Origin: an uncultured Planctomycetales bacterium
GTDB lineage: Bacteria; Planctomycetota; UBA1135
Length of the DNA stretch: 36,164 nt
Reading direction: 5' to 3'
NCBI GenBank assembly: GCA_964643675.1
Contig: CAZXTO010000002.1
Span: 1 to 36,164, forward strand
Made by a program: the position numbers and the translations under genes. Below the pieces are notes generated by a model. The model was not told where the DNA came from. It saw only the letters and a program-made list of their open reading frames with translations, and did no database searches. The first letter of the stretch is position 1. Every line of letters begins with the position of its first letter. This document shows positions 4,853 through 36,164 of the stretch, piece by piece.

Positions 4853-4867
4853 CCCTCGATCGGCGAA

Positions 4868-4903: not shown

Positions 4904-4919
4904 CGCGCGGGTCGGCGGC

Positions 4920-10533: not shown

Positions 10534-11565
10534 ATGATGAACCCGCCGCCCGCGCCCATGCTCCTTGCCTGCCTCCTCCTCTCCGCCTGCGCGCTCGCGC
10601 CGCCGCAGGACCCCGAAGCTGCGGCGATCCGAGTCGCCGAACTGCCCGACGGAGGGCTCCGCCTCCAGGCGGGCGAGGCGCCGCTGCTGGTCTATCGCGC
10701 GCGCCAGGTTCCCCTGCCCGCCGGCTACCTCGAGCGGGTCGCCGAAGGCAATCGACGCTACGCCCGGCCGCGCAGCGGCTACCTGCACCCGCTCTACGGC
10801 CTCGACGGCGAGGAGCTGACCCTCGACTGGAGCCTCGACCACCCGCACCACCGCGGCATCTACTGGGCCTGGCCCGAGCTGCGGTGGGGCGAGCGGACCG
10901 GCGATCTGCACGCCTTGCAGGAGGTCTGGTCCCGGCCGGTGGGGGAGCCCAGCACCCGGACCGACCCGGCGACCGGCGCGGTCGTGCTGGCGGCCGACAA
11001 CCTCTGGTCGTGGCAGGACGGATCTCCGGTGGCCTTCGAGCGGGTGCAGATCACGGCCCACCCTCCTGAAGAGGACGGCGCTCGCGCGGTCGATCTCGCC
11101 TTGCGCTTCGAGGCGCTGGTCGACGAGCTGAGCCTGGCACGCCGCGGCACCGATCTCTACGGCGGCTTGAACCTGCGCTTGGCGCCGGTGGCGGACCTCG
11201 CGCTCGACCATCACCCGCCGACGGTGCCGATGGCCTGGCCGTCGAGCGCCTGGTCGAGCGCCACCGGGACCTGGCGCGGGGGAGAGCGCCGCACCACCTT
11301 GGCTGTGATCGAGCACCCCGCCAACCCGGACTTCCCGGGCGACTTCGTGAGCTACCCCGAGCTGCCCTGGTTCCAGCCGGCCTTCCCGCGCGCCGGCACC
11401 CGCTACGCCCTGCGGCGCGGCGAGCCCCTGCTCCTCCGCTACCGCCTCCGGATCTCCCCCGGGGAACCCGATCCCGGGGCCTTGGCCGACGCCTGCCTCG
11501 CCTTCGCCCTGCTCCCGGATCCCTTCGAGGCTCCGCCGCCCGCCAACGAGACCGAAGATCGATGA
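10534..11565 (+). CDS. DUF6807 (PmoA-like) family lipoprotein
   Basis: Lipobox LLLSAC after MMNPPPAPMLLAC. The family hallmark LDHPHHRGIYWAW is present. The track ORF begins at GTG 10513; I prefer ATG 10534/10537 because it gives a normal lipoprotein signal. The stop overlaps the next gene's start (ATGA at 11562..11565). Confidence 0.75.
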   Translation: MMNPPPAPMLLACLLLSACALAPPQDPEAAAIRVAELPDGGLRLQAGEAPLLVYRARQVPLPAGYLERVAEGNRRYARPRSGYLHPLYGLDGEELTLDWSLDHPHHRGIYWAWPELRWGERTGDLHALQEVWSRPVGEPSTRTDPATGAVVLAADNLWSWQDGSPVAFERVQITAHPPEEDGARAVDLALRFEALVDELSLARRGTDLYGGLNLRLAPVADLALDHHPPTVPMAWPSSAWSSATGTWRGGERRTTLAVIEHPANPDFPGDFVSYPELPWFQPAFPRAGTRYALRRGEPLLLRYRLRISPGEPDPGALADACLAFALLPDPFEAPPPANETEDR

Positions 11566-12884: not shown

Positions 12885-12891
12885 ACCTGCC

Positions 12892-16835: not shown

Positions 16836-16905
16836 GATTCGACGAGCCAGCGACGTCAGAGTAACCGTGGCCCCCGCCGCCGGGGCCCCGATCGACCGCT
16901 TTCCG

Positions 16906-17802
16906 ATGAACACCGTTCCGCAACAATCTCGCCGCCGACCGTGGGGGTGGCTGCTCGGAATCGTCCTGCTGATGATCGCGCTCATCGCTGGGGTCTTGGT
17001 TGCCTCCATCCTGGATCGACGCGCTCAACACGAGGAGGCGGAGCGTCTTTGGAGTCGAGTGGAAGGGGAGTTGCACCGCCTCCCGGATCGGGGGACGGTC
17101 GATGTCGGGTTCGAAACCGCCTTCCCGGATCGGGAGGCCCTGCTCGATTGGGCGGCGCAGGGGCCAGGGAGTCGATCCGCGATCGCCCACAGTTTCTTCG
17201 GAACCGATCGCTCCACCTTCTTCGCACACCATGAGCTGTTGGACGAGCTGCTCGCGGAGCCAGGGCTCGGCCCTGAGGAACTGAAGGCGGTCGAACGCGC
17301 TGCCGGTGAATTCCGCAGGAGTGCCATCCTGATCGAGGTCCTCTCCTGCTGCCTCCTCGCCGACGACCTGCTGATCGCGGTCGATGAGGGGCGGTTGGAT
17401 CGAGAGCTGCTGGCCGATCTCGAGATCCTCCCGGAGCTGGAGGACATCCGCTTGGCCTTCCTGGTCGAGGCGGTGACCAGTTGGGAAGCCGTTCGGGACG
17501 CGGCCGCCTCGGCTGCCACGGGCGGCCAGGCGATTCCCTTCCTCGAAGACGACCTGGATGCCTTCCGACTCCACGTCGCCGAGCGGACGCTGGCGGCCGT
17601 TGATGCCGACGACTTCCTGCAGCTCAAGGAGACTCTCGCGGCCAGGGAGAACGACCTCGAGCGGAAGAGACGATCTCCCAGCTTCTGGACGATGTTGTTC
17701 GGTGACCAACTCCTGGATGGCCTCGTCCACGCGGAGTATGCCCGGGTGATCGAGCGGCTGATCGAGGCCCATCAGGCCTGGGAGGCCGGAATCGCCCATT
17801 GA
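16906..17802 (+). CDS. Hypothetical single-pass membrane-anchored protein, 298 aa
   Basis: ATG 16906 is in frame with track ORF 16609..17802 and is the first start clear of the divergent gene. MNTVPQQSRRRPWGWLLGIVLLMIALIAGVLVASIL is an N-in anchor, followed by an acidic helical domain. I recognise no family. The next gene starts 4 nt after its stop. Confidence 0.55.
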   Translation: MNTVPQQSRRRPWGWLLGIVLLMIALIAGVLVASILDRRAQHEEAERLWSRVEGELHRLPDRGTVDVGFETAFPDREALLDWAAQGPGSRSAIAHSFFGTDRSTFFAHHELLDELLAEPGLGPEELKAVERAAGEFRRSAILIEVLSCCLLADDLLIAVDEGRLDRELLADLEILPELEDIRLAFLVEAVTSWEAVRDAAASAATGGQAIPFLEDDLDAFRLHVAERTLAAVDADDFLQLKETLAARENDLERKRRSPSFWTMLFGDQLLDGLVHAEYARVIERLIEAHQAWEAGIAH

Positions 17803-22460: not shown

Positions 22461-23327
22461 ATGCGGAGAGCGGGGTGGCTCTTGAGGTCGGTCTTCACGG
22501 TCGGCGTGATCGCAGTGTTGCTGGCTGCGGTGCTCGTGACCGATGCCTGTTCCCTCCGCGCGCGCAAGGCGGAGTTCGAGCGCGCCATGGGGCCGGTCCG
22601 TGACTACTGCGCCGACCATCGTGAGCTCGGCAGCGTCGACGCCCAGCTCCTCCACCCGGCCAGGTCGCTCGCGGACCTGCGGTCCTGGCCGGCCAGGTAC
22701 CCGCAGGTCCGGGTGAAGATCGTCGGCCACTGGGTCGGTCCCTTCGGGGAGCCGGAGTGGCTGGAGATGGTGGACTTCGTGAAGGAGCACTTCCGGTCCG
22801 GCCGACCGGAGGAGTCCGATGCGATCCTCGTGATGGAGATGGCCGCGGTCAGTCGGGAGTCCGGCGGCCTGCTGCCCTTGATGTGGTCCCGGATCCTGGA
22901 GGAGGCGGTCTTGGGGGCGATCCAGGAGGGCCGCCTGGTGCCCGCGGACTCCGCGACCTTCCAAGGATGGGCGACGCCGGCCGACCTCGCCGGAGCCATG
23001 GCGGGCGAGACCGTGGTCGGCGAGGAGATGGTGAAGGGGAGGACCGGGTGGCAGGAAGCGCTGCTCGAGCGCGAGACCTACCGGGCCTTGATTCGGAACG
23101 CCGACCTGGCCGCGCGATTGCTCCGGGAGGCGCGAACGGCCGCGGGAGTTCGGCGCGCGGTGGAGGAGCACGTCGCCGTGCACCCGCCGTGGGAGGAACC
23201 CTTCTGGTCTCGGCAGTTGCAGGCCGGCGTCGGTCCCGTGCCGCCTTCGAACGTCCTCGAGATGTGCGATCGCCTGGAGCAGCACGACCGGGCGTGGCGG
23301 GCGGTGCTGGGCCAAGGCGGCGACTAG
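22461..23327 (+). CDS. Hypothetical membrane-anchored protein, 288 aa
   Basis: ORF track. The N-terminal anchor is WLLRSVFTVGVIAVLLAAVLV, followed by a soluble domain with no family I recognise. GC-rich third positions are consistent with real coding. Confidence 0.55.
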   Translation: MRRAGWLLRSVFTVGVIAVLLAAVLVTDACSLRARKAEFERAMGPVRDYCADHRELGSVDAQLLHPARSLADLRSWPARYPQVRVKIVGHWVGPFGEPEWLEMVDFVKEHFRSGRPEESDAILVMEMAAVSRESGGLLPLMWSRILEEAVLGAIQEGRLVPADSATFQGWATPADLAGAMAGETVVGEEMVKGRTGWQEALLERETYRALIRNADLAARLLREARTAAGVRRAVEEHVAVHPPWEEPFWSRQLQAGVGPVPPSNVLEMCDRLEQHDRAWRAVLGQGGD

Positions 23328-23338
23328 GATCGGAGGGG

Positions 23339-26300
23339 ATGGCCTGCTGGCGCCTCCCGCTGCTCCTCTTCTGCTCCCTGCTCGCGGCCGCCGCGCCGGC
23401 GCAGGACGCCGCCCCGCGCCCCAACATCGTCCTGATCCTCAGCGACGACCAGGGCACGGTCGACCTGGGGGTCTGCGGCACCGAGGACGCGATCACGCCG
23501 CATCTCGACGCGCTCGCCTCGCGCGGGCTTCGCTTCACCCAGTTCTACGCCGCCTCGCCGATCTGCTCGCCGTCGCGCGCGGGGCTCCTGACCGGCCGCT
23601 ACCCGCACCGGGTCGGGGTGCCGGGCAACGTCTGGCCGGGCGGGCCGGGGCTGCGCGGGGACGAGACCACCCTCGCCGAGGTCTTCCGCGACGCCGGCTA
23701 CGCCACCGCGCTGTTCGGCAAGTGGCACCTCGGCAGCCGGCCGGGCGAGCGGCCCAACGACCAGGGCTTCGAGCGCTTCTTCGGCCACCACAAGGGCTGC
23801 ATCGACAACTGGTCGCACTTCTTCTACTGGAGCGGCCCGAACCGCCACGACCTGTGGCGCGACGAGGTGGAGGTCTGGGAGGAGGGCGCCCACTTCGGCG
23901 ACCTGATCGTGCGCGAGGCGCGCGCCTTCCTGCGCGAGCGCGCCGCCGCGGATGACGGCCGGCCCTTCCTGCTCTACCTGCCCTTCAACTCGCCGCACTA
24001 CCCGCTGCAAGGCAAGGCAGAGCATCGGGCCCTGTTCGCCGGCACGGAAGGCCCGCGCGCCGACTACCTGGCGCTGCTCGCCACCATGGACGCGCAGATC
24101 GGCGCCGTGCTCGGCGAGCTCGACGCGCTCGGTATGCGCGAGGACACGATCGTCGTGTTCCAGTCCGACCACGGGCACTCCACCGAGGAGCGCAGCTTCG
24201 GCGGCGGCGGCAGCGCGGGTCCCTACCGCGGGGCGAAGTTCAGCCTGTTCGAGGGCGGCATCCGGGTGCCGGCGATCCTGTCCTGGCCGGGGCGCCTGGC
24301 GGAGGGTGCGGTCACCGAGGAGCTCGGCCACGCGATGGACTGGCTGCCGACCCTGTGCGAGCTGGCCGGGGTGGCGCCGCCGCCCGAGCTCGACGGCCGC
24401 AGCCTGGTGCCGGTGATCCACGGCCGAGGCGTCCCGCCGACCCCGCGGCTGCTCCACTGGCAGGTCGGCGACCAGTGGGCGGTGCGCATCGGCGCCGAGA
24501 AGCTGATCCGCAACCCGCGCGACACCGACCGCAGCAAGCTGAAGGGAGCGGACGCGCGCTTCTTCGTGGATCTCGGCGCTGACCCGGGCGAGCGGCGGAA
24601 CCTCGCCGCCGATCAGGAGGACCTGGTCGAGGCCTTCACCGCCTTGCACCGGACCTGGCGCGAAGACGTCGATGGCTTGGAGCAGAAGGTGCTGTTCCTC
24701 GGCCTGGACGGGGTGCGGGCGGACGCGCTGCGGGCCGCGGACACGCCGCACCTGGACTCCCTGATCGCCGCCGGCGGCTTCACGGATCGGGCGCGCGGCG
24801 TGGGGATGAGCGGGCACAGCGGGCCGAATTGGGCCAGCCTGCTGACTGGGCTGGAGCCGTCGCGGCACGGCGTCTCCGCCAACGGCGACGACCCCGAAGA
24901 CCTGGGGGTCTTCCCACACCTGTTCCGGTTGGTGAAGCAGGCGCGCCCCGAGCTGCACACGGCGAGCTTCGCCAAGTGGACGCCGATCAACGCCGCGCTC
25001 ACCCCGGACGACGTCGCCGAGCTCGAGTTCTCGGCCGCCGACGGCTTCGAGGTGCCGCAGGAAGCCGTGGATGGCGACCCGGTGATCGCTGCCGAGGTCG
25101 CCCGTTTCCTGCGCGGCGAGGGCAAGCTGCCGCCGGCCGAACCGGACGTGGTGGTCGTGCACCTCGACCAGGTGGACGGCGCCGGCCACGCCCACGGCTA
25201 CCACCCCGAGCAGCCCGAGTACCTGGCCGCGATCGAGCGCGTCGACGCCTTGGTGGGCGAGATCCTGGCCGCGCTGCGTTCGCGGGAGGACGTGGAGCGC
25301 GGCCGCGAGCAGTGGCTGGTGCTCGTCACCACCGACCACGGCGGCTACGGCCGCGGCGGCCAGAACACCGGCCACTCGATCACCGGCGAGGAAGAGCAGG
25401 ACGAGGCGGTCCGCAGCACCTGGTGGATCCTGTCCGGCCCCACGGTCCCCGCCGGCGCCGAGCTGGGCGCTCCGCGGGCGGTGGACGCGGTGCCCACCAT
25501 GCTGCACCACCTGCGGGTGGACCCGGGCCGCTTCTCCCTCGATGGGCGGGTGGTGATCCCGGCCGCGCCCACCCCGACCGCCGCTCCCGCGTCGACGGGC
25601 GCCGCCCCGCCTGGTGGACCCGAGGCTCCGGCCGGTCCGCCGCCGCTGCGCTTCACCTTCACGCCGGTCGCAGGCATCGGCCCGGAGGCCGGGCTGATCC
25701 GGCGCGACCCCAGCGACGTCGTGGCGGTCGGTGACCGCCACCTGGTCTGGTACACCAAGCTGCGCCGGGGCATGCCGACCTACCCCGAGGGTTATGGCGG
25801 CGAGATCTGGTACGCCGAGTCGCGCGACGAAGGGCGGAGCTGGACCGAGCGCGGGCGCGCCCTCGGCCACGGTCCGGCGGGCGGCTTCGATGCCCACGGG
25901 GTCTTCACCCCGAACGTCCTGCAGCATGAGGGGAGCTGGTTCCTCTACTACACCGCGGTCGCCGAGGGCTTCACCAACGCCGAGGTCGCAGCGAGCGGTC
26001 GCACGGTGATCGCGGTCGCCCGCGCCGACTCGCCCGACGGCCCTTGGGTTCGTCCGCGGCGGCCGATCCTGGCGAGCCGATGGGAGCAGCCGGGGGCCTT
26101 CGACAGCTACCGCGTCGACGACGCCTGCCTGGCGGTTGGGGACGAGGGTGAGCTCCGCCTCTACTACAAGGGGCGCAGCGTCGCCGATGGGCGCTCGGGG
26201 CCGCGCCACACCCGCATGGGCCTGGCGACCGCCGCGTCGCCCGAGGGGCCTTTCCGCCGCGTGGGGCCGGGTCCGATCCAGGACTCCGGGCACGAGGTCC

Positions 26301-26572
26301 TGGTGTTCCCGCAAGGCGGCGCCTGGTGGAGCCTGGTCTCGCCGCACGGCCCGCGCGGCCGCAGCCTGCGCTTCAGCTTCGATGGAATGGACTTTGACCA
26401 GCACCTGTACCGCGCCATCGAGGGCCCGGCCCTGCGCGCGCCGGGCTTGTTCCGGCCGGAGCTGAGCGGCGGCCAGGCTCCGCTGCCCGGCGCGCCGCGC
26501 TGGGGCCTGCACATGTCAGGCTATGGCGGCGAGCCGGGTTTGGAGCGCTTCGAGCTGCAGGTGGCCGGCTAG
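23339..26572 (+). CDS. Secreted three-domain fusion: Cys-type sulfatase + type I phosphodiesterase/nucleotide pyrophosphatase (NPP)-like domain + Pro-rich linker + 5-bladed beta-propeller glycosidase-like (GH43/GH117-like) domain, 1077 aa
   Basis: The start is MACWRLPLLLFCSLLAAAAPA at 23339, preceded by GGAGGGG. The 194 upstream track codons overlap the previous gene out of frame.
- Domain 1: NIVLILSDDQG, ICSPSRAGLLTGRYPHR, SDHGHS.
- Domain 2: VLFLGLDGVRADAL, HSGPNWASLLTGLEPSRHGV, HLDQVDGAGHAHG, TTDHGG.
- Linker: PAAPTPTAAPASTGAAPPGGPEAPAGPPP.
- Domain 3: LIRRDPSDVVAVGDRHLVWYT, AESRDEGRSW, DDACLAV. Confidence 0.85.
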   Translation: MACWRLPLLLFCSLLAAAAPAQDAAPRPNIVLILSDDQGTVDLGVCGTEDAITPHLDALASRGLRFTQFYAASPICSPSRAGLLTGRYPHRVGVPGNVWPGGPGLRGDETTLAEVFRDAGYATALFGKWHLGSRPGERPNDQGFERFFGHHKGCIDNWSHFFYWSGPNRHDLWRDEVEVWEEGAHFGDLIVREARAFLRERAAADDGRPFLLYLPFNSPHYPLQGKAEHRALFAGTEGPRADYLALLATMDAQIGAVLGELDALGMREDTIVVFQSDHGHSTEERSFGGGGSAGPYRGAKFSLFEGGIRVPAILSWPGRLAEGAVTEELGHAMDWLPTLCELAGVAPPPELDGRSLVPVIHGRGVPPTPRLLHWQVGDQWAVRIGAEKLIRNPRDTDRSKLKGADARFFVDLGADPGERRNLAADQEDLVEAFTALHRTWREDVDGLEQKVLFLGLDGVRADALRAADTPHLDSLIAAGGFTDRARGVGMSGHSGPNWASLLTGLEPSRHGVSANGDDPEDLGVFPHLFRLVKQARPELHTASFAKWTPINAALTPDDVAELEFSAADGFEVPQEAVDGDPVIAAEVARFLRGEGKLPPAEPDVVVVHLDQVDGAGHAHGYHPEQPEYLAAIERVDALVGEILAALRSREDVERGREQWLVLVTTDHGGYGRGGQNTGHSITGEEEQDEAVRSTWWILSGPTVPAGAELGAPRAVDAVPTMLHHLRVDPGRFSLDGRVVIPAAPTPTAAPASTGAAPPGGPEAPAGPPPLRFTFTPVAGIGPEAGLIRRDPSDVVAVGDRHLVWYTKLRRGMPTYPEGYGGEIWYAESRDEGRSWTERGRALGHGPAGGFDAHGVFTPNVLQHEGSWFLYYTAVAEGFTNAEVAASGRTVIAVARADSPDGPWVRPRRPILASRWEQPGAFDSYRVDDACLAVGDEGELRLYYKGRSVADGRSGPRHTRMGLATAASPEGPFRRVGPGPIQDSGHEVLVFPQGGAWWSLVSPHGPRGRSLRFSFDGMDFDQHLYRAIEGPALRAPGLFRPELSGGQAPLPGAPRWGLHMSGYGGEPGLERFELQVAG

Positions 26573-28190: not shown

Positions 28191-31100
28191 ATGAAGCTCC
28201 TCCTGCCCCGCCTGATCGCGCTCCTGGTGGCCGCCGGGACGCTGGCCGCCCTCGCTCCGGGCCAGGCCACCCAGACCAGCTTCGAGGAGCTGCCCGCGGG
28301 CGCCTTCACCAGCCTCGAGGGCGCGCTCGGGGAGTGGCGCGCCGACCCGGGCGCGGCCGAGATCGACCCGGCCCACGCCGCCGACGGGAGCCAGTGCCTG
28401 CACCTCTTCGGCGGCGAGGAGAGCGTGGTGGAGCTGCGCCTGGCCGGCGGCGCGAGTCCGGTGCACGAGCTCAGCTTCCGAGCCGAGCGCTGGACCCGCC
28501 AAGGGCCGTTCCGGTTCCGCGTCGAGGTCCGGCGCGGCCGCAAGTGGGAGCAGGTCTACGACGGCGACGCCGAGATCCGGGTCGGCGGCTTCCTGGTGCG
28601 CCCGCGGATCCGGATCGACGGCCGCATCGACCGGCTGCGCTTCCGCTGCAGCTCCCCGCCCGGCAAGGGCGTGCTGATCGACGAGCTGCGGCTCGAGCCG
28701 CCCGGGCCGATGGAGCTGGTGCGGGCCGACGTGCTCCAGCCGGTGCTGCCGGTGTTGGTCGGCAACCGCGTCAACCCGGTGCTGCGGCTCGAGCTCGAGA
28801 CCCGCGGCAACCTGCGCCCGCTGGAGCTGAGCGAGGTCGTGGTCGATCTGCGCGGCACCACCCGGCCGCAGGACCTCGAGGCGGTCGAGCTCTACGCCGG
28901 CGGCGAGTCGCGGGAGCTCGGCTACCGCAGCCCCGGCGCGGAATTCGACGCCGAGCGACGATTCGGCGCCGCCCGGAAGCCGACGGCGGGCGCGGCCGAG
29001 GAGCTGCGTTTCCGCGGCCGCTTCCCCCTGCAACCCGGCCAGAACTGCTTCTGGCTGTCCGTGCGCCCGCGCCCCGACGCCGACCTGGACGGCCGCGTCG
29101 ACGCCGCGGTCCTGCGCCTGCGCCTCGCCGATGGCAGCTGGATCCTGCCGGCCGAGCCGCGGCCGCCCGAGTCGCAGCGCCTCGGCGTGGCCCTGCGCAA
29201 CGCCGGCGACGACGGCAGCGCCGCCTACCGCATCCCGGGGCTGGTCACGACCAAGGTCGGCACCCTGATCGCGGTCTACGACGCGCGCTGGAAGGGCTGG
29301 GGCGACCTGCCCGGCGACATCGACGTCGGCATGTCGCGCAGCACCGACGGCGGCCGCAGCTGGGAGCCGATGCGCATCATCCTGGACTGCGGCGACGACC
29401 CCGCCTTCCGCCACGACGGCGTCGGCGACCCGGCGGTGCTGGTCGACCGCCAGACCGGCACCATCTGGGTCATGGCGACCTGGAGCCACGGCGACCGCAG
29501 CTGGAACGGCTCCGGCCCCGGGCTGGAGCCGGTGGAGACCGGCCAGCTGCTGCTCACCCGCAGCGATGACGACGGCCTGAGCTGGTCCGATCCCATCAAC
29601 ATCACCCGGCAGGTGAAGGATCCGGCGTGGAGCTTCGTCCTCCAGGGGCCGGGCCGCGGCATCACCATGCGCGACGGCACCCTGGTCTTCCCGGGCGACG
29701 TCCGCCGCTCGCCCGAGGAAGGCAAAGTGCCGAGCGCGACCGTGATCTTCAGCCGCGACCACGGCGAGAGCTGGCAGATCGGCAGCCTGGCGCGGGAGAA
29801 CACCACCGAGTCAGCGGTGGTCGAGCTGGCCGACGGCGAGCTGATGCTCAACATGCGCGACAACCGCGGCGGCTCGCGCGCGGTGATGGTCTCGCCGGAT
29901 CTCGGCGCCACCTGGAGCGACCACCCCAGCACCCGCAGCCTGCTGCCGGAACCGGTCTGCATGGCGAGCCTGATCCACGTCGGCCGCGAACTCAGCGGCG
30001 AATCCGACGGCCGCTTGCTGTTCAGCAACCCCAGCGTGGACCGGGCCCCGCGGCGCCGCATGAGCGTGCAGCTCTCGAGCGACTCCGGCGCCAGCTGGCC
30101 GGTCGCCCAGCGCATCCTGCTCGACGAGGGTGCCTCCGCCGGCTATTCCTGCCTGACGATGATCGACGACCAGACTGTCGGCATCCTCTACGAGTCGAGC
30201 CGGGCCCAGCTCGCCTTCCAGCGCCTGGCTCTGCAGGACTTCGAGGCCGCGCTGCCCGCCGGCTACTCGATCCCGGTGATCGATCTCGACGCCGAGGGCG
30301 AGCGCCAGACCGTGGTCGACCGCGAAGAGGGGCAGTACCTCGGTCACCCGACCACCGTCCTGCTCGAGGACGGTCGCACCATGATCGCGGTCTACCCCAA
30401 GGGCCACGGCAAGGGCGCGATCGTGATGAAGCGCAGCGCCGACGGCGGCCGGACCTGGTCCGAGCGCTTGCCGGTGCCGGAGTCCTGGGCCACCTCCAAG
30501 GAGGTGCCGACGATCTACCGCGTGGTCGACGCCGCCGGCAAGAAGCGCCTGATCCTGTTCAGCGGCCTGTACCCGATCCGGATGGCGGTCAGCGAGGACG
30601 ACGGCGCCAGCTGGAGCGAGCTCGAGCCGATCGGCGACTACGGCGGCATCGTCGCCAACGCCGCCCTGACCGAGGTCGGCCCCGGCGAGTACCTGGCGTG
30701 GTTCCACGACGACGGCCGCTTCATCGGCGAGCGGCACGCGCCGCCCGAAGACGGCCACCGCTTCCACCTCTACCAGATCCGCTCCACCGACGGCGGGTTG
30801 AGCTGGAGCGCGCCCGAGGTGATCGCCAGCCACGAGGTCGCCCACCTGTGCGAGCCGGGCGTGGTGTGGTCGCCCGACGGCGAGACCATGGCGCTGCTGC
30901 TGCGCGAGAACAGCCGCCGGCTCAACAGCCACGTGGTCTTCAGCGGCGACCGCGGGCGCAGCTGGAGCGATCCGCGCGAGCTGCCGGCCGCCCTCACCGG
31001 CGACCGCCACACCGCGGTCCGGACCGCCGACGGCCGCCTCTTCATCAGCTTCCGCGACACCGCCCGCGCGAGCGACACCCAGGGCGACTGGTGCGCCTGG

Positions 31101-31322
31101 GTCGGGACCTGGGAGGACATCGTCGCCGGCCGCGAGGGGCAGTACCGCGTGCGCCTGAAGGACAACCAGCACCGCTGGGACTGCGCCTACCCGGGCGTGG
31201 TCCTGCTGCCCGACGACACCATCGTCACCACGACCTACGGGCACTGGGAGGAGGGGAAACAACCCTATGTCCTTTCGATCCGCCTGCGGCTGGCGGAAAT
31301 GGACGCGAAGTTGGGTCGATAG
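28191..31322 (+). CDS. Secreted exo-alpha-sialidase (GH33) with N-terminal carbohydrate-binding-like domains and a second C-terminal BNR/sialidase-like propeller, 1043 aa
   Basis: A signal peptide is present.
- First propeller: FRIP-type motif AAYRIPGL and Asp-boxes SRSTDGGRSW, SDDDGLSW, SRDHGESW, SPDLGATW, SSDSGASW. Candidate catalytic residues are GVGDPAV, ESAVVEL and AGYSCL.
- Residues ~700-1043: a second set of Asp-boxes (SADGGRTW, SEDDGASW, STDGGLSW, SGDRGRSW) with no RIP motif. Confidence 0.9.
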   Translation: MKLLLPRLIALLVAAGTLAALAPGQATQTSFEELPAGAFTSLEGALGEWRADPGAAEIDPAHAADGSQCLHLFGGEESVVELRLAGGASPVHELSFRAERWTRQGPFRFRVEVRRGRKWEQVYDGDAEIRVGGFLVRPRIRIDGRIDRLRFRCSSPPGKGVLIDELRLEPPGPMELVRADVLQPVLPVLVGNRVNPVLRLELETRGNLRPLELSEVVVDLRGTTRPQDLEAVELYAGGESRELGYRSPGAEFDAERRFGAARKPTAGAAEELRFRGRFPLQPGQNCFWLSVRPRPDADLDGRVDAAVLRLRLADGSWILPAEPRPPESQRLGVALRNAGDDGSAAYRIPGLVTTKVGTLIAVYDARWKGWGDLPGDIDVGMSRSTDGGRSWEPMRIILDCGDDPAFRHDGVGDPAVLVDRQTGTIWVMATWSHGDRSWNGSGPGLEPVETGQLLLTRSDDDGLSWSDPINITRQVKDPAWSFVLQGPGRGITMRDGTLVFPGDVRRSPEEGKVPSATVIFSRDHGESWQIGSLARENTTESAVVELADGELMLNMRDNRGGSRAVMVSPDLGATWSDHPSTRSLLPEPVCMASLIHVGRELSGESDGRLLFSNPSVDRAPRRRMSVQLSSDSGASWPVAQRILLDEGASAGYSCLTMIDDQTVGILYESSRAQLAFQRLALQDFEAALPAGYSIPVIDLDAEGERQTVVDREEGQYLGHPTTVLLEDGRTMIAVYPKGHGKGAIVMKRSADGGRTWSERLPVPESWATSKEVPTIYRVVDAAGKKRLILFSGLYPIRMAVSEDDGASWSELEPIGDYGGIVANAALTEVGPGEYLAWFHDDGRFIGERHAPPEDGHRFHLYQIRSTDGGLSWSAPEVIASHEVAHLCEPGVVWSPDGETMALLLRENSRRLNSHVVFSGDRGRSWSDPRELPAALTGDRHTAVRTADGRLFISFRDTARASDTQGDWCAWVGTWEDIVAGREGQYRVRLKDNQHRWDCAYPGVVLLPDDTIVTTTYGHWEEGKQPYVLSIRLRLAEMDAKLGR

Positions 31323-31379: not shown

Positions 31380-31385
31380 CATAAT
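31380..31385 (+). promoter_or_regulatory. -10-like CATAAT box upstream of the VTC operon
   Basis: CATAAT lies in an AT-rich patch (GGAATTCCATGGCATAATCAAGAGG). Seven nt downstream is ATG 31393, which opens a two-codon mini-ORF (ATG CCC TGA). The VTC gene ATG is at 31418. Confidence 0.35.
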
Positions 31386-31417
31386 CAAGAGGATGCCCTG
31401 ACGGGCAGGCTCCAGCC

Positions 31418-32179
31418 ATGGCAGCTCCTTGGGCCCTCGACCGGACCCTGCGGTCCCGGTATGAATGCAAGTACCTCATTTCAGAGGACTTGGCGCGGGA
31501 GATCCGTAAGTTCGCCCAGCCCTACGTGGAGCTGGACTACTTCTCGGCGCAGCAGCCGGACCACCGCTACGCGGTCCACAGCCTGTACCTCGACGGGCCC
31601 TCCCACGAGCTCTACGAGACCACTCGCCGGGGCCTGAAGAACCGCTTCAAGCTGCGCATCCGCGGCTATGACGCCAAGCCGGAGTCGCCGCTCTTCATCG
31701 AGGTGAAGAAGCGCGCCGACCGGGTGATCATGAAGCGGCGCGCGCTGGTCTCGCGGCCGGCGGCGCAGGCGCTGCTGAGCGGTCAGGCCATGCCCGAAGG
31801 CACCGACACCAGCCTGCGCGACTTCGCCGAATTCCGCGGCCTCGCGGCCCGCCTGGCGGCGAAGCCGGCGGTCTACGTCTCCTACCTGCGGGAGGCCTAC
31901 GAAGCCGGCGGCCCCGAGCCGGCCCGGATCACCTTCGACCGGAACCTCCACCACGCGGTGGTCGGCGCCGGCGCGCCCTTCGCCTTCGACCAGCTCGACT
32001 GGCGGCCGACGCCCTGCGAGGGCACGATCCTGGAGCTCAAGTACACCGACGCCTGCCCGCAGTGGATCGAGATGCTGATCGAGACCTTCCAGCTGGCTCG
32101 CCGCTCGGTCGCCAAGTACGTGATGTGCCTCGAAGAGGCGCTGCAGCGTTACCCGCACTCCAACGCCTTCCATGGATAG
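31418..32179 (+). CDS. VTC-domain (CYTH-like triphosphate tunnel, polyphosphate-polymerase-like) protein, 253 aa
   Basis: RYECKYLI (E-x-K on the first strand), NRFKLRIRGYD, LFIEVKKR and TILELKY resemble the charged tunnel-lining strands of VTC/CYTH domains. No TM segments are present. Confidence 0.85.
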   Translation: MAAPWALDRTLRSRYECKYLISEDLAREIRKFAQPYVELDYFSAQQPDHRYAVHSLYLDGPSHELYETTRRGLKNRFKLRIRGYDAKPESPLFIEVKKRADRVIMKRRALVSRPAAQALLSGQAMPEGTDTSLRDFAEFRGLAARLAAKPAVYVSYLREAYEAGGPEPARITFDRNLHHAVVGAGAPFAFDQLDWRPTPCEGTILELKYTDACPQWIEMLIETFQLARRSVAKYVMCLEEALQRYPHSNAFHG

Positions 32180-32876
32180 CCTCGACGGCCTGCTGCGGCT
32201 GTTCGCCCAAGGCGGCTCGACCACCCCGGCCTACACGCCGGAGGCGATGGCGCTGTCCTTGCTGCTGGCCTTCGTGATCGGGCAGTTCCTGGCCTGGGTC
32301 TACCTGCGCATCCACAGCGGCCTGTCCTACTCGCGGACCTTCACCCAGTCGCTGGTGCTGCTGACCATGGTCGTGGCGCTGGTGATGTTCGTGATCGGCA
32401 ACTCGATCGTCACCGCCTTCGGCCTGATCGGCGCGCTCGCGATCATCCGCTTCCGCAACGTCCTCAAGGACACGCGGGACACGGTGTTCGTGTTCTTCGC
32501 GCTGGTGATCGGCATGGCGATCGGCTCCCAGCGGCACCTGGCGGCGATCATCGGCGCGCTGGCGCTGGCCTTCGTCTCCTTCTACCTCCACTTCACCCGC
32601 TTCGGCTCGCTGTCGCCCTTCGACGGCCACCTCAACTGCCGCCTCAGCGGCGAGGGCCGCGACGCCGCCGACGGCGCCCTCTCCGGCGTGCTGCGCGCCC
32701 ACTGCCGCAGTGCCCGCCGGGTCTCGGTGCGCGAGGCCGGCGGCGGGGCCGAGTACGTCTACCAGGTGCGGCTGCGCGACCCCGGCCGCAGCGGCGACTT
32801 CGTGGCCGCGATCGAAGGCCTGGCCGGCATCGGCGAGGTCGGCCTGGTGCTGCGCGACGAGTACGCCGAGATCTGA
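32172..32876 (+). CDS. DUF4956-family multi-pass membrane protein with C-terminal soluble domain, 234 aa
   Basis: It overlaps the VTC gene by 8 nt. There are four to five hydrophobic helices. GLIGALAIIRFRNVLKDTRDTVFVFFALVIGMAIG matches my recollection of the DUF4956 core (..VRFR..IKD..D..F.F.....G...G). Confidence 0.8.
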   Translation: MDSLDGLLRLFAQGGSTTPAYTPEAMALSLLLAFVIGQFLAWVYLRIHSGLSYSRTFTQSLVLLTMVVALVMFVIGNSIVTAFGLIGALAIIRFRNVLKDTRDTVFVFFALVIGMAIGSQRHLAAIIGALALAFVSFYLHFTRFGSLSPFDGHLNCRLSGEGRDAADGALSGVLRAHCRSARRVSVREAGGGAEYVYQVRLRDPGRSGDFVAAIEGLAGIGEVGLVLRDEYAEI

Positions 32877-32879
32877 TCC

Positions 32880-34019
32880 GTGCGCAAGGTCCCCATCCCC
32901 CTCGGCCGTCGATTCGACGACTTCCGCCGCCGGGCGCTGCCGCTGGCGGTGTGGCTCGCGGCGGTCTTCGGCGTGGTCCAGCTGGTCCAGCTGCGCGGCA
33001 GCCAGGTGGAGTTCCTGGGCCTGGCCGAGGTCAGCGAGCTGGTGGTGACGGCCCCGGCCGACGGCACCATCGCCGAGCTGGCGGTCGAGCTCTACGACCC
33101 GGTCGCCTCCGGCCAGGTGCTGGCGGTCTTCGATCCCGAGCCGCTCAGCGCCCGGATCCGCACCTCCGCCGCCGAGGTCGAGCGCCTGGCGGCCGAGCGC
33201 GCCGCGGTGGCGGCCGAGCTGGCCTCCCAGGCCGAGGTGATCAGCAACGACTGGGAGAAGGACGCCCGCCGCTTCCAGGTCGACGCCGCCGACCTGCGGG
33301 TCGAGCTGCTGCAGGCGCGGGTCGAGCTCGAGGCCGACCGGGTCGAGCTGGAGCGGCGCCGGGTGGCCTACCAGCGGGCCCAGTCCCTGGTCGAGTCGGC
33401 GGTGCTGTCCGAGGCCGAGGCCGAGGACCTGCTGCTCGCCAGCGAGGTGGTGGCGGCTCGGATCGAGGCCACCGTTGAGCTGGTCGCGCGCTTGGAGCTG
33501 GAGCACGACGCCGCCCAGACTCGGGCTCGCGCCTTCCTGGCCGCGGCGCCCGAGGAGCTGGTGGTGGAGCCGCGCTTGGCCGCGCTGCAGCGCGCGGTCG
33601 AGGTCGAGGAGCTGCGCATCGCCGAGATCGAGCTGGCGCGGGCTGCGTTGGTGGTGCGCTCGCCGTCCACCGGCCGCGTAGGCGCGCTGCTGGCCAGCGC
33701 CGGGCGCACCGTGGTGCTCGGGCAGGGCCTGCTCTCCGTCACCCCTTCGGTGGGGGAGGCGGTGACCTTCTACCTGCCGCCGGCGGCCAGCCACCAGGTC
33801 GCGGTCGGCGACCGGGTGCAGGTCCACCGTCCGGGCGAGCGGCAGACCGCCGAGGGCGTGGTGGCCGTGCTGGCTCCCGCGGTCGCCGAGATCCCGGCCG
33901 CGCTGTGGCGCGACCCGGCGGTGCCCGAGTACGGCCGCGCGGTGCGGCTGAAGCCGCAGCCGGGCTTGAGCCTGGTGCCGGGCGAGCCGGTGCAGGTGGC
34001 CTTGGTCGAGCGCGGTTGA
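32880..34019 (+). CDS. HlyD-family membrane-fusion (periplasmic adaptor) protein, 379 aa
   Basis: The GTG start lies 3 nt after the DUF4956 stop. There is an N-terminal anchor LPLAVWLAAVFGVVQLVQL. Split lipoyl-like halves are VVTAPADGTIAELAVELYDPVASGQVLAVFD and LVVRSPSTGRVGALLASAGRTVVLGQGLLSV, flanking a long A/E/R/L coiled coil. A C-terminal beta-barrel-like region follows. Confidence 0.75.
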   Translation: MRKVPIPLGRRFDDFRRRALPLAVWLAAVFGVVQLVQLRGSQVEFLGLAEVSELVVTAPADGTIAELAVELYDPVASGQVLAVFDPEPLSARIRTSAAEVERLAAERAAVAAELASQAEVISNDWEKDARRFQVDAADLRVELLQARVELEADRVELERRRVAYQRAQSLVESAVLSEAEAEDLLLASEVVAARIEATVELVARLELEHDAAQTRARAFLAAAPEELVVEPRLAALQRAVEVEELRIAEIELARAALVVRSPSTGRVGALLASAGRTVVLGQGLLSVTPSVGEAVTFYLPPAASHQVAVGDRVQVHRPGERQTAEGVVAVLAPAVAEIPAALWRDPAVPEYGRAVRLKPQPGLSLVPGEPVQVALVERG

Positions 34020-34035
34020 GGCTTCGGGCTCAACC
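34014..34035. terminator. Hairpin spanning both stop codons of the convergent adaptor and CotH genes
   Basis: GGTTGAG (34014..34020) pairs with CTCAACC (34029..34035). An inner C-G pair closes a TTCG tetraloop (34023..34026). The hairpin contains TGA 34017..34019 and the complement of TGA at 34030..34032. Confidence 0.35.
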
Positions 34036-36164
34036 CACCGTCAGCGCCAGGCCGTTGGTGAAGCTGGCGCTGCCGACGTCATAGGCCTGGAGCCACACCG
34101 GCAGGCCGGCGGCGCCGGCGGGGATCGCGGCCTGGAAGCTGCTGCTGCCGGCCCAATCGGCGCCCTGGCTGCCGACCAGCTGGATCGGATCGCTGAGGGC
34201 GGCGGGGCCATAGATCGTGTTGGTAGGGCCGCCGCCGGTGGTCGAGTAGCCGAGGTGCTGCACTCCGCCGGGGGTGCCGCCGGCGACCACGAAGGTGGCG
34301 GTCGCCCCGGCCTCGAAGCCGCGCGCCACCAGCGCCGGGCCGGAGGTCGAGGCAGCCAGCAGGCCCTGGTCGTCCCACAGCGCCAGCGACTCGCCGGGGT
34401 TCAGGTTGCCGCTGTAGGGGCCGACCACCAGCAGGCCCTGGCCGCCGGAGGGGCCGGTGCCGCGCAGGCGGAACTCGGTCGGGTTCTCGACCGCGTAGAC
34501 CGAGCCGCCGGGCACGACCACGGTTCCGGCCGGGAACACGTAGTCCACCCCGCCGCTCAAGGACCAGCCGGACAGGTCGACCGCCTCGGCGCCTGAATTG
34601 ACCAGCTCGATGAACTCCTCCTCCTCGTTGCCGGAGATCGGGTTGTCGTCGATGTCGCCGAAGGAGACCAGCAGGGCGGCTGACTGCGCGCCGGGCACCA
34701 GGCCGGCGTGGGTCTGGTAGAGGTGGGTGCGCCGCACCGGCAGGTAGAGGCTCCGGATCCGTCCCACCGCGGTGGCGAAGTCGTAGCTACGGTTGCCGTA
34801 GTTGGGCACGCCCCACTTGGCCTGGTCCAGCGCCACGTCCGCGGCCATCTCGAGCTCGAACTGGTCCAGCCGCTGCTCGTAGCGCAGCTCGGCGGCGGGC
34901 GTGCCCGGCTCCTGCAGCTGCTGGTCCATCACCGTGCGCAGCCGGCGCAGGTACATCTGCTGGATCTCGGGGACGCGGTAGCAGGCGTCGATCAGGCGGT
35001 TCCAGTAGCCGTCGACCTTCTTGTGGTTGCGGTCGCCGAACAGCGGGTGGCTGTAGGGGTCGTCGTTGGCCCAGATGGTGTCGTTGAGCACGCCGCCGCT
35101 GAGGGTGTAGTTGCGGCCGACGGTCAGGTCCTTGTCCCAGGGCAGCATGCGCCACAGCTGGTCGCCGTCGCTGTCGCGGTAGAGGTAGTAGTTCTTGTGA
35201 ACGTGGTCGTTGTCGTGGATCAGCGAGGTGGCCGCCAGGTAGCTGATCACCTGCGGGAGGTCGACGTTGTCGAACAGGTAGTGCTCCAGCGCGGTGCCGC
35301 TGAGCTGGACGCCGGCGACCAGGTCGCCGAGGTCTTGGTTGCCCTCCCAGAGGCGGGTCTTCTTCTCCACCTCCCAGGTCGAGCTGGTCAGCGGGTTGAA
35401 CATCTTGTACAGCGCGCCCTCGGAGTCGTAGCCGTGGCGCTCGAGCAGCTCCTCGTCGACCTGCTCGACGAAGGCGGCGACGCTGAAGAAGGCGCCGTTC
35501 TGCTGGATCCGGGCCGGGAAGCTGATGCTGCCGGGGCAGCCGGCCTCGGCGTAGGTCTCGAAGCACAGCGGCTGGCGCACGAAGGCCTTGTCGCCGTAGG
35601 TGGAGTTGAGGTTGATCTCCTCGACGCGCCCCAGGGCCGGGTCGAACAGGAAGTGGTCGCCGCTGTTGAAGTCGAACTTGTAGCTCTTCTTGGGCCAGCC
35701 CAGCGAGCTGCCGCCGCGCAGGCGCACGTGCACGTTGTCGTAGAACTGGTCGAGGTGCCACAGCGCGCAGCGGGTTCCGCTGCTGGTGTTGGCGGCGTTG
35801 GGGTTCTGGACGAACCAGTGGAACACCGGCAGCTGGTTGTGCGCGCCCGGGTCGGCGACCATCGCGCCGAAGTACTCGGGCGAGTCGGTCGGGTCGAGGA
35901 ACTGCGGCGCGCGCCCCTGGGCCGACCCGGGCTCGTCGGCGGTCACGTACCAGCGCAGCATCCCGCCGGGGGCGGCGGTGCCGGCCGCGATCTGGCCGGT
36001 GTGCACGCCGTCGCCGGCGAAGAGGTCGGCGCCGAGGCCCTGGTCGTTCATGCCGGTCACGAAGGTGCTGCCGTAGCCGCTGCGGAAGTGCAGATTGAGG
36101 CTGCCGGTGGCGCCGAGGCCGCCGACCACCTCGGCGGTGACGGTGATCGCGTCGGCGGCGGTGG
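34030..36164 (-). CDS. CotH-family atypical protein kinase with lamin-tail domain (LTD) and C-terminal beta-rich domain; N-terminus lies beyond the right edge (at least 711 codons in window)
   Basis: CotH blocks are present: GWPKKSYKFDF, EINLNSTYGDKAFVRQ, LIHDNDHVHKNYYLYRDSDGDQLWRMLPWDKDLTVG. LTD-like block: EEEFIELVNSGAEAVDLSGWSLSGGVDYVFPAGTVVVPGGSVYAV. The frame is open from 36129 to the window edge (..TAADAITVTAE precedes the track's first residue), so the track's start is not the true start. Confidence 0.9.
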   Translation of the reverse strand, partial: TAADAITVTAEVVGGLGATGSLNLHFRSGYGSTFVTGMNDQGLGADLFAGDGVHTGQIAAGTAAPGGMLRWYVTADEPGSAQGRAPQFLDPTDSPEYFGAMVADPGAHNQLPVFHWFVQNPNAANTSSGTRCALWHLDQFYDNVHVRLRGGSSLGWPKKSYKFDFNSGDHFLFDPALGRVEEINLNSTYGDKAFVRQPLCFETYAEAGCPGSISFPARIQQNGAFFSVAAFVEQVDEELLERHGYDSEGALYKMFNPLTSSTWEVEKKTRLWEGNQDLGDLVAGVQLSGTALEHYLFDNVDLPQVISYLAATSLIHDNDHVHKNYYLYRDSDGDQLWRMLPWDKDLTVGRNYTLSGGVLNDTIWANDDPYSHPLFGDRNHKKVDGYWNRLIDACYRVPEIQQMYLRRLRTVMDQQLQEPGTPAAELRYEQRLDQFELEMAADVALDQAKWGVPNYGNRSYDFATAVGRIRSLYLPVRRTHLYQTHAGLVPGAQSAALLVSFGDIDDNPISGNEEEEFIELVNSGAEAVDLSGWSLSGGVDYVFPAGTVVVPGGSVYAVENPTEFRLRGTGPSGGQGLLVVGPYSGNLNPGESLALWDDQGLLAASTSGPALVARGFEAGATATFVVAGGTPGGVQHLGYSTTGGGPTNTIYGPAALSDPIQLVGSQGADWAGSSSFQAAIPAGAAGLPVWLQAYDVGSASFTNGLALTVG

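Follow-up and report, generated by a model that had tools for sequence, protein, structure and literature searches.

Bacterial polyphosphate (polyP) is ascribed to PPK1 and PPK2, both of which are cytoplasmic, and we know of no settled route by which the polymer gets to the bacterial surface or into the medium. In the eukaryotic VTC complex (Vtc4/Vtc1/Vtc2-3; 7ytj, 8i6v; catalytic domain 3g3q) a catalytic tunnel domain is paired with a 3-TM DUF202 channel, and the target is the vacuole lumen. The locus described here encodes a homologous tunnel domain in which the mapped residues are kept, likewise paired with a membrane protein, and we propose that it follows a similar logic of coupled synthesis and translocation. 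In contrast to the eukaryotic complex, the predicted polymerase is a separate soluble protein without SPX, its membrane partner is a five-TM, MgtC-like DUF4956 protein with an ACT-like domain, and the proposed target is the diderm envelope, by way of an adaptor and an outer-membrane factor (OMF).

Several other described systems resemble this locus in part. The EmrAB-TolC and MacAB-TolC pumps share with it an adaptor of the EmrA fold with a TM anchor and, in some relatives, a TolC-family OMF encoded downstream. However, the module contains no MFS, ABC or RND pump, its inner-membrane slot being occupied by DUF4956 and the predicted cytoplasmic polymerase, and its adaptor falls below every NCBIfam subfamily cutoff, in a family of its own. 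Sets of CotH, VTC and DUF4956 genes have been reported in Gram-positive bacteria (Firmicutes and Actinobacteria), including accessory genes next to pel operons (CotH, 'polyphosphate polymerase' and DUF4956, with or without DUF4832) and C. perfringens NELoc-2, and there the three families stand together as they do here. Those sets belong to monoderms, lie beside Pel polysaccharide genes and, as published, contain no adaptor or OMF, whereas the core here is VTC-DUF4956-adaptor, with CotH optional and no pel context. Synthase-dependent exopolymer secretion (cellulose Bcs, alginate, Pel, PNAG) embodies the same concept of a polymerase at the cytoplasmic face served by its own path through the entire envelope, but it has no homologous component; the polymer here would be inorganic, and the parts are of the MFP/TolC type rather than TPR/beta-barrel porins. 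Finally, MgtC, YhiD and SapB share with DUF4956 a five-TM N-terminal domain followed by an ACT-like C-terminal domain, while DUF4956 scores below the Pfam MgtC threshold and carries a distinctive RFRNxxKDTRD loop; to our knowledge, MgtC has no obligatory VTC-enzyme partner. Searches of the accessible literature found no description of a VTC-DUF4956-adaptor module and no assigned function for a bacterial VTC-type enzyme.

Organisation and conservation of the locus

The features lie at the right-hand end of the window (the whole stretch of 36,164 nucleotides that was analysed) and are listed in the table. The four reading frames and their spacing, as proposed in the first-pass annotation, were all reproduced from the sequence. 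The ATG of the DUF4956 gene (32172) lies upstream of the TAG of the VTC gene (32177-32179), giving an 8-nt overlap; the TGA of the DUF4956 gene (32874-32876) is separated from the GTG of the adaptor gene (32880) by the 3-nt gap TCC; and the adaptor stop (34017-34019) faces the stop of the convergent CotH gene (34030-32, minus strand) across a 10-nt spacer. All four frames are coding as judged by GC3 (0.91-0.97), and the assignments to VTC, DUF4956, HlyD-type adaptor and CotH plus LTD were each confirmed with Pfam.

Table. Features of the locus, with window coordinates.
Feature	Coordinates	Strand	Details
VTC-domain protein	31418..32179	+	253 aa, soluble; predicted polyphosphate polymerase; Pfam VTC
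DUF4956 inner-membrane protein	32172..32876	+	234 aa; predicted membrane partner or conduit; Pfam DUF4956
Periplasmic adaptor, EmrA/HlyD type, membrane-anchored	32880..34019	+	GTG start, 379 aa; HlyD_3 + Biotin_lipoyl
CotH-kinase + LTD protein, convergent	34030..>36164	-	runs past window end; Pfam CotH, LTD
7-bp inverted repeat over both stop codons	34014..34035	.	stem GGTTGAG/CTCAACC; probably incidental

A hairpin spanning both stop codons had also been singled out. The 7-bp stem is present, but its fold energy is like that of shuffled sequence (z = -0.41), no T-tract was found at the site, and it is not kept in the equivalent spacers of two related loci (L007 and L009). We therefore give it no weight.

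The order VTC, DUF4956, adaptor on one strand is found at 70 of 76 informative loci, these being, among 85 distinct loci overall, the ones whose downstream genomic sequence is long enough. Carriers include Planctomycetota, Acidobacteriota, Sumerlaeota, Balneolaceae and others, and a cultured species, Rohdeia mirabilis Pla163 (locus L039). The genes are tightly packed, with median gaps between HMM envelopes of 18 nt (VTC to DUF4956) and 16 nt (DUF4956 to adaptor) that never exceed 66 nt; no VTC-DUF4956 fusion was seen among the loci. Searches that began from the adaptor recovered the module in all six gene contexts, where the surrounding genes are otherwise unrelated, and in metagenomes at 15 of 15 informative loci (12 of 12 with full upstream sequence, plus three partial). 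Divergence between pairs of loci is correlated among the three proteins (r = 0.82-0.85), as would equally be expected from plain vertical co-inheritance. The synteny of VTC and DUF4956 anticipated by the first-pass annotation thus holds in relatives and extends to the adaptor. The same annotation had regarded an adaptor within the operon as unfamiliar; given the shared gene order and the result of the adaptor-first searches, it is a core component in this clade rather than an odd insertion. Taken together, the VTC, DUF4956 and adaptor genes very probably constitute one functional module.

The predicted polymerase and its candidate membrane partner

The VTC-domain protein matches Pfam VTC (PF09359) over residues 14-238 of 253 (1.4e-34; 120.1 bits against a cutoff of 23), and a profile built from 60 sequences matches the catalytic domain of yeast Vtc4 (E = 8e-16), scoring the polymerase Vtc4 above the non-catalytic Vtc2 and Vtc3. 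In the alignment, the tunnel residues fall on catalytic positions of Vtc4: R14, K18, R80, R82, E95 and K97 correspond to R196, K200, R264, R266, E279 and K281, and Y156, R158, R170, E206 and K208 to Y359, R361, R373, E426 and K428. None of these residues varies among 60 homologues, and across 70 distinct loci each is at least 95% conserved; the motifs previously picked out by eye (RYECKY, KLRIRGY, FIEVKKR and ILELKY) are present and contain invariant positions. No hydrophobic or TM segment was detected in the protein, in agreement with the earlier view that it lacks a membrane segment of its own, and Pfam searches of the module proteins gave no match to SPX or DUF202 domains. On the strength of its sequence, this soluble protein is a predicted polyP polymerase and would synthesise polyP; conserved tunnel residues are not proof of polymerase activity, and triphosphate-tunnel enzymes (the CYTH/TTM superfamily) are mostly hydrolases or cyclases.

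The DUF4956 protein has hydrophobic segments and matches its Pfam model (PF16316) with 1.1e-9 and 38.7 bits against a cutoff of 30.6, as do all 62 aligned homologues. It is the most conserved of the module proteins (mean identity 0.46, compared with 0.40 for VTC and 0.28 for the adaptor), and its basic loop, R93-F-R-N-x-x-K-D-T-R-D103, is invariant. The AF2 model (pLDDT 83.5) starts with an N-terminal helix, continues with five TM helices and ends in an ACT-like domain; helices are modelled at 23-47, 54-75, 79-97, 101-118 and 122-142, and residues 152-227 form a beta-alpha-beta-beta-alpha-beta fold. Foldseek searches with this model returned ACT-like domains only, including the MgtC C-terminal domain 2lqj, and no match to the VTC channel (7ytj, 8i6v). 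Pfam MgtC (PF02308) weakly matches 61 of the 62 homologues (best E = 2.5e-5), the score of the protein itself being below the gathering threshold (14.5 against 31.4 bits), and hhalign aligns DUF4956 with E. coli YhiD at 93.5% probability (E = 2.3e-7). DUF4956 is thus distantly homologous to MgtC/YhiD and ends in an ACT-like domain. As far as is known, members of the MgtC family are regulators rather than proven channels.

Descent of DUF4956 from a Vtc1-type (DUF202) channel was considered and rejected, in view of the MgtC/YhiD homology and the lack of a DUF202 or VTC-channel match. The suggestion that VTC and DUF4956 form a split counterpart of the eukaryotic polymerase and channel therefore survives as a functional analogy only and not as a statement of common descent with the Vtc1/Vtc4 channel.

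The adaptor and a proposed route across the envelope

The adaptor, a predicted membrane fusion protein (MFP), matches Pfam HlyD_3 (8.7e-12; 46.2 bits against a cutoff of 22.2) as well as Biotin_lipoyl, while none of the NCBIfam adaptor subfamily models (RND_mfp, EmrA, type I HlyD, MacA and DevB) comes close to its cutoff, with scores such as 52 against 95 and 46 against 391. Its family comprises some 933 clusters at 50% identity. At the loci analysed, its gene always sits directly 3' of DUF4956. The AF2 model (pLDDT 88.1) shows a lipoyl domain, an 86-residue helix in a long hairpin and a beta-barrel, with a TM helix at about 18-40 (18-38 by hydrophobicity), and the best Foldseek matches are EmrA (4tko, 2.6e-19), MacA and the EmrAB-TolC assemblies 8zal and 8zar. 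The model best matches an EmrA-like adaptor of the TolC-docking type with one TM anchor.

A TolC-family OMF gene directly follows the adaptor at 12 of 85 distinct loci (~14%) and also at L109, at distances of -45 to +67 nt (Pfam OEP, 3e-13 to 3e-24). In these loci the gene set from cytoplasm to outer membrane is complete. The proposal in the first-pass annotation that the system spans the envelope gains support from this gene and from the EmrA-like adaptor. No OMF gene was found within the present 36-kb window; the OMFs of classic pumps are often encoded away from the pump, as is E. coli tolC. We know of no polyanion transport through TolC-type ducts. Neither the surroundings of the module in the window nor clustering of flanking genes over the 85 distinct loci revealed a (recurrent) ABC, RND or MFS pump, which leaves DUF4956 as the sole candidate inner-membrane partner.

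We tentatively favour, as the best reading of these data, a polymerase-coupled tripartite polyP exporter, although our confidence in it falls a little short of even. At the cytoplasmic side of a DUF4956 oligomer, the VTC enzyme would build polyP from ATP, and the nascent chain would pass through DUF4956, with synthesis coupled to translocation as in the eukaryotic VTC complex. The long hairpin of the adaptor would dock onto a TolC-family OMF, encoded within the operon in some relatives and presumably elsewhere in the present organism. The polymer would thereby arrive at the cell surface or in the medium.

The same parts might instead export another kind of substrate, for instance a small molecule or phosphorylated compound, or a metal, with the VTC protein acting as an ATP, triphosphate or polyP hydrolase that energises or gates a DUF4956 transporter in place of the ATPase of an ABC pump. 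Such an arrangement would suit the MFP (and OMF) architecture typical of efflux pumps, the absence of another energising pump encoded nearby, the prevalence of phosphohydrolases among CYTH/TTM members and the small-ligand control suggested by the ACT-like domain. Nevertheless, we consider it unlikely, because the protein belongs to the VTC subfamily and not to generic CYTH (120 bits in Pfam), matches Vtc4 more strongly than it does Vtc2 or Vtc3, which are non-catalytic, and has a link to a CotH phosphotransferase that fits a phosphate polymer better; moreover, we know of no TTM-energised transporter.

Similarly improbable, in our estimation, is that the outer membrane is left uncrossed, the adaptor serving as a periplasmic scaffold in most carriers, including this one, while polyP is delivered only to the membrane or periplasm or the module regulates phosphate, Mg2+ or ATP homeostasis in the manner of MgtC. 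The kinship of DUF4956 with MgtC/YhiD points in this direction, as does the absence of an adjacent OMF from 86% of loci and from the present window, but the remote location of many classic-pump OMF genes weakens the latter point, and the long EmrA-type hairpin of the adaptor is of the kind used for tip-to-tip docking onto TolC. A preprint on S. intermedius suggests that polyP may remain cytoplasmic in Gram-positives; the adaptor, however, is near-universal at loci of diderm phyla, and the published Gram-positive sets list none.

The CotH neighbour and implications of the module

The convergent gene matches Pfam CotH (PF08757) with 8.6e-33 and 114.6 bits against a cutoff of 23.8, and LTD with 1.3e-11; in an alignment with B. 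cereus CotH (5jd9), its kinase motifs, HDNDHVHKNY and PWDKD, are matched. The fragment lacks about 181 N-terminal residues, which lie beyond the window end, and shares 70% identity with the orthologue at L009 over residues 182-894 of the latter. The N-terminus of that orthologue comprises a signal-peptide-like sequence, of the Sec type, and a first LTD, and a CotH paralogue at L012 also begins with a signal-peptide-like sequence.

The linkage of CotH to the module, put forward in the first-pass annotation, is real but optional. Of 85 distinct loci, 25 have CotH next to the module, in one of four arrangements, and CotH is present at about 35-45% of loci; it is absent from 55 of the 85 and from 23 of the 41 loci that have 4 kb of sequence on each side. 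Since it is missing from more than half of the loci and its position varies, CotH is a frequent but facultative accessory, outside the core. This frequent absence, the location of CotH on the opposite strand (so that it is not co-transcribed) and the non-significant shared hairpin would all be expected if CotH were a mere neighbour here, adjacent by chance or in a lineage-specific manner. We regard this as very unlikely, because unbiased clustering found CotH to be the only strongly recurrent neighbour family (33 of 85 groups), because four different arrangements argue for selection over inherited synteny, and because Firmicutes and Actinobacteria are reported to carry this pairing too.

Within the preferred reading as a polyP exporter, the putatively secreted CotH-LTD kinase may, speculatively, use the polymer once exported, or anchor it, in a compartment free of ATP. 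PolyP synthesis, polyP export and use of polyP by CotH are all predictions. In its boldest form, the proposal is of a further class of diderm tripartite machine, in which a VTC polymerase seated on an MgtC-like DUF4956 replaces the ABC, RND or MFS pump, polymerisation itself drives polyP outwards by way of an EmrA-like adaptor and then a TolC-like channel to the cell surface, and secreted CotH takes polyP instead of ATP as its phosphoryl donor; as a whole this is rather unlikely.

If polyP export is correct, the module would represent a third route to bacterial polyP and supply TolC-type systems with a new kind of inner-membrane component. It would also give DUF4956, and by extension MgtC-like proteins, a first functional context. 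PolyP would become a possible extracellular phosphate donor for secreted CotH kinases, an idea that is open to experiment. As a candidate for dedicated polyP synthesis and export the module is widespread, and its presence in the cultured R. mirabilis makes it testable.

Genes and surroundings in the window

Three plus-strand genes, encoding a VTC-domain protein, a DUF4956 protein and a HlyD-type adaptor, run towards a convergent CotH-LTD gene that is cut by the window end (see table). The VTC and DUF4956 genes overlap by 8 nt (ATGGATAG), a 3-nt gap precedes the adaptor, and a 10-nt spacer separates the adaptor from CotH; these positions and junctions are exactly those of the first-pass annotation. 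All four frames are coding by GC3 (0.91-0.97; window GC 72%), and the domain assignments made at first reading held, each passing the curated Pfam cutoff (E-values: VTC 1.4e-34; DUF4956 1.1e-9; HlyD_3 8.7e-12; CotH 8.6e-33; LTD 1.3e-11). The same reading had placed one hairpin over both stop codons. A 7-bp stem does cover them, but in fold energy it does not stand out from shuffled sequence (z = -0.41), it carries no T-run and relatives do not conserve it, and a bidirectional terminator was therefore ruled out. A scan that is uninformative for Planctomycetota found no sigma-70-like promoter 5' of the VTC gene.

Coordinates of the module genes and of other features discussed
Locus	Feature	Coordinates	Strand	Remarks
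Window	VTC-domain protein	31418..32179	+	253 aa
Window	DUF4956 protein	32172..32876	+	234 aa
Window	HlyD-type adaptor	32880..34019	+	GTG start, 379 aa
Window	Adaptor N-terminal tail	32880..32960		residues 1-27
Window	CotH-LTD	34030..>36164	-	710 aa inside window
Window	Stem over stop codons	34014-34035
Window	Sulfatase-GH43 ORF	22757..26572	+	1271 aa
Window	BNR sialidase-like ORF	28191..31322	+	1043 aa
Window	ORF, no Pfam match	4920..6632	-	570 aa
Window	ORF, no Pfam match	7705..10371	-	888 aa
Window	ORF, no Pfam match	14352..17009	-	885 aa
L007	CotH-LTD, upstream	3866..6286	+	co-directional, 806 aa
L007	CotH-LTD, downstream	9177..11864	-	convergent, 895 aa
L092	ABC exporter	9710..11908	-	convergent, directly after DUF4956
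L034	ORF, no Pfam match	8787..12110	+	1108 aa
L005	Second HlyD-like gene and following ORFs	260..5231	+
L058	DUF3616 protein	12374..13546	+
L046	DUF3616 protein	11658..12527	+

Elsewhere in the window lie genes for several sulfatases, a BNR sialidase-like protein with two domains, a GFO/IDH/MocA oxidoreductase, an Nramp transporter, a DUF6807 protein and a WG-repeat protein; the module is linked to no further phosphate-, polyP- or transport-related gene. PADLOC matched none of the four proteins to anti-phage defence, and for each of the three module proteins the nearest homologues come from MAGs labelled Planctomycetota. The BNR sialidase-like ORF (BNR_assoc_N and two propellers) lies directly 5' of the module; it was dropped as a member because its synteny reaches no further than L007 (1045 aa) and L009 (shorter, 372 aa), the two closest relatives. 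Further upstream, one ORF joins two Sulfatase stretches, a phosphodiesterase/metalloenzyme region and a GH43 segment, and is either an outsized multi-domain sulfatase-glycosidase fusion or several genes merged in a high-GC frame. Three long minus-strand ORFs have strong coding GC3 and no Pfam match at all.

Synteny of the module

Conservation of the gene order was examined from both ends of the module. Starting from adaptor homologues (69% to 31% identity), the order VTC, DUF4956, adaptor was found in all six distinct contexts, whose flanks are otherwise unrelated. Starting from VTC, a profile scan limited to a single genome for each species gave at least 579 relatives, the best 80 loci were analysed with our own HMMs, and with near-identical loci collapsed there are 85 distinct loci. 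Of these, 76 have at least 2 kb downstream, and in 70 of the 76 VTC is followed on its own strand by DUF4956 and the adaptor, with median gaps of 18 and 16 nt and a maximum of no more than 66 nt. Adjacency and gaps were measured by HMM envelope coordinates, since stop-to-stop ORFs over-extend upstream. In metagenomes, the adaptor profile found VTC and DUF4956 directly upstream in 12 of 12 loci with sufficient upstream sequence, and DUF4956 at the contig edge in three more. Carriers are labelled as Planctomycetota (Pirellulales, Phycisphaerae, Thermoguttaceae and, as a cultured member, Rohdeia mirabilis Pla163, with the module at about 1,192.8-1,195.5 kb of NZ_CP036290.1, locus L039) and, outside this phylum, as Acidobacteriota, Sumerlaeota, Balneolaceae, Myxococcales and Anaerolineales.

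The adaptor had been regarded as an unusual insertion into a VTC/DUF4956 operon. The forward and reciprocal scans show the reverse: synteny of VTC and DUF4956 is indeed conserved, and the adaptor is the rule and a core component. The three proteins have diverged in step (correlation of pairwise divergences, r = 0.82-0.85), which is consistent with inheritance as a unit and is no specific proof of interaction. Taken together, the three genes very probably form one functional unit.

In the six exceptions, VTC either stands as an orphan gene or has DUF4956 beside it without the adaptor. At one orphan (L034), which has CotH upstream, a single ORF without Pfam match replaces DUF4956 and the adaptor. 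At one of the two adaptor-less VTC-DUF4956 loci (L092), a fused ABC exporter (ABC_membrane and ABC_tran) adjoins DUF4956.

The three module proteins

As a single sequence the VTC protein retrieved nothing useful from the PDB, whereas a 60-sequence profile matched the catalytic domain of yeast Vtc4 (E = 8e-16), with the non-catalytic Vtc2 and Vtc3 scoring weaker. Read off the profile alignment (full-length numbering of 8i6v_E), the tunnel residues correspond as R14=R196, K18=K200, R80=R264, R82=R266, E95=E279, K97=K281, Y156=Y359, R158=R361, R170=R373, E206=E426, K208=K428 and K233=K455 or K458. All are invariant across the 60 sequences and at least 95% conserved over 70 distinct loci, so that the catalytic tunnel proposed at first reading aligns with that of Vtc4. 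Polymerase activity of Vtc4 reportedly depends on K200, R264/R266, K281 and E426. In the window protein Pfam finds neither an SPX nor a DUF202 domain, and a hydrophobic segment is lacking. Judged by these residues it looks catalytically competent, as a polymerase or as a hydrolase. Under the second option, a TTM hydrolase would energise the export of some other substrate, which we consider unlikely.

DUF4956 had been proposed as a counterpart of the VTC channel; common descent did not survive, which leaves an analogy of function. Its AlphaFold2 model (pLDDT 83.5) comprises an N-terminal helix, five TM helices (23-47, 54-75, 79-97, 101-118, 122-142) and a beta-alpha-beta-beta-alpha-beta C-terminal domain (152-227). 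Foldseek against the PDB matched the C-terminal domain alone, to ACT domains (Rel, PGDH) and the MgtC C-terminal domain (2lqj), and returned no VTC-complex chain; a Vtc1-like channel was ruled out on this result and on the lack of a DUF202 match. Sequence searches of the PDB gave nothing useful with the single sequence and no solved relative with a profile. A sub-threshold Pfam MgtC match recurs in 61 of 62 homologues, and hhalign of the family profile to E. coli YhiD (93.5% probability, E = 2.3e-7) spans TM3-TM5 and the C-terminal domain. On these grounds DUF4956 is a distant MgtC/YhiD-type protein and is unrelated to the Vtc1/Vtc4 channel. Of the three proteins it varies least (mean pairwise identity 0.46), with an invariant basic loop (R93-F-R-N-x-x-K-D-T-R-D103) plus H48, S52 and Y53. 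By the positive-inside rule and the cytoplasmic ACT-like domain, these residues should face the cytoplasm, where an anionic chain could plausibly dock on them or enter. No VTC-DUF4956 fusions were seen in the fetched loci or match lists. An S. intermedius preprint (bioRxiv) independently describes its DUF4956 protein as four TM helices plus an ACT domain, and in B. thetaiotaomicron the DUF4956 gene adjoins a DUF2490 gene, the two being co-regulated under iron limitation (BT3498-BT3499; PMC10434189).

The adaptor model (pLDDT 88.1) has an N-terminal TM helix (hydropathy 18-38), a lipoyl domain, a beta-barrel and a long hairpin built by an 86-residue helix; its top structural matches are EmrA (4tko, 2.6e-19), MacA and chains of EmrAB-TolC. 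It falls below cutoff for every NCBIfam adaptor subfamily model and represents a family of its own, with 933 clusters (50% identity, E <= 1e-30), nearly all of about 380 aa. HlyD-type adaptors have cytoplasmic tails able to contact substrate or pump. Ahead of the TM helix lies such a short tail, conserved among homologues (consensus IPIPLxRRxxxFRRxxLPLxVW, alignment A3), and by analogy it might contact VTC or the ACT-like domain. In the 31%-identity relative L005, the module is preceded at a distance of a few kb by a second, unrelated Biotin_lipoyl/HlyD-like gene, behind which come DUF6754 and three unannotated ORFs; these may encode a further system built around an adaptor, with a membrane partner of non-canonical type.

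CotH, the outer-membrane factor and a possible export route

When flanking ORFs of all loci were clustered without prior bias, only two families recurred, CotH/LTD and a TolC-family outer-membrane factor (OMF); across the 85 distinct loci no ABC, RND or MFS pump was recurrent. An iterated profile detected CotH at 36 loci, versus 12 by single-sequence search. Of the 85 distinct loci, 30 have it in their flanks (18 of 41 where both sides reach at least 4 kb), and in 25, some with two copies, it directly adjoins the module. Among its four arrangements, upstream co-directional is the commonest (16), ahead of downstream co-directional (5), with downstream convergent, the form seen in the window, and upstream divergent at 3 each. 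The 69%-identity relative L007 has its module bracketed by two different CotH-LTD genes. At 70% identity, the window fragment matches residues 182-894 of the L009 orthologue and thus lacks about 181 residues, which in L009 contain a signal peptide (MLRPLLVLLAVLGLAALAPAAPQAA) and the first LTD; a signal peptide likewise begins an upstream-type paralogue (L012). The kinase motifs line up with those of B. cereus CotH. From these counts, arrangements and signal peptides, CotH appears to be a genuine, facultative, secreted accessory. Its assignment to the system thus stands as recurrent linkage and fails as a constant feature. Whether its adjacency in the window is incidental is a question on CotH alone; we regard coincidence as very unlikely.

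The OMF (535-579 aa; Pfam OEP, 3e-13 to 3e-24) lies directly 3' of the adaptor and co-stranded in 12 of 85 distinct loci, with gaps of -45 to +67 nt. These are Phycisphaerae and Pirellulales loci; the metagenome locus L109 has the OMF too. In L058, L067 and L089 the full order is CotH-VTC-DUF4956-adaptor-OMF. Genes 3' of the OMF (DUF3616, radical-SAM/BATS, LeuRS, fumarase) are inconsistent between loci and not core. A DUF3616 gene follows the in-operon OMF in L058, where it overlaps the OMF stop codon, and in L046; a fifth or sixth member confined to some lineages is conceivable, at a recurrence too low to call. The 36,164-nt window has no TolC-family gene. The in-operon OMF argues most strongly for an assembly that spans the envelope, with DUF4956 probably in the inner-membrane slot. 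That polyP, or a regulatory function, stays at the inner membrane or periplasm seems improbable to us.

The first-pass observation is thus confirmed and its interpretation partly supported: the adaptor is general and an OMF sometimes completes the set, but DUF4956 is no VTC-type channel and CotH is optional. We hold polymerase-coupled polyP export tentatively, at a little under an even chance. In such a scheme polyP would be the product and DUF4956 the conduit, the adaptor would bridge to an OMF encoded elsewhere in the genome, and CotH would use or anchor the product. Accessory sets of CotH, "polyphosphate polymerase" and DUF4956 (with or without DUF4832) have been noted beside Gram-positive pel operons (bioRxiv 10.1101/768473; 10.1101/2024.04.20.589940) and in C. 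perfringens NELoc-2 (PMC11677781). Within the searchable literature, itself incomplete, no paper combined polyphosphate, VTC and HlyD, and work on DUF4956, CotH kinases, bacterial VTC and polyP export held no description of the module. The module combines two known kinds of machine, the VTC polymerase/translocase and the TolC-type tripartite exporter; to our knowledge this VTC-DUF4956-adaptor(-OMF) combination is undescribed, and it is directly testable.
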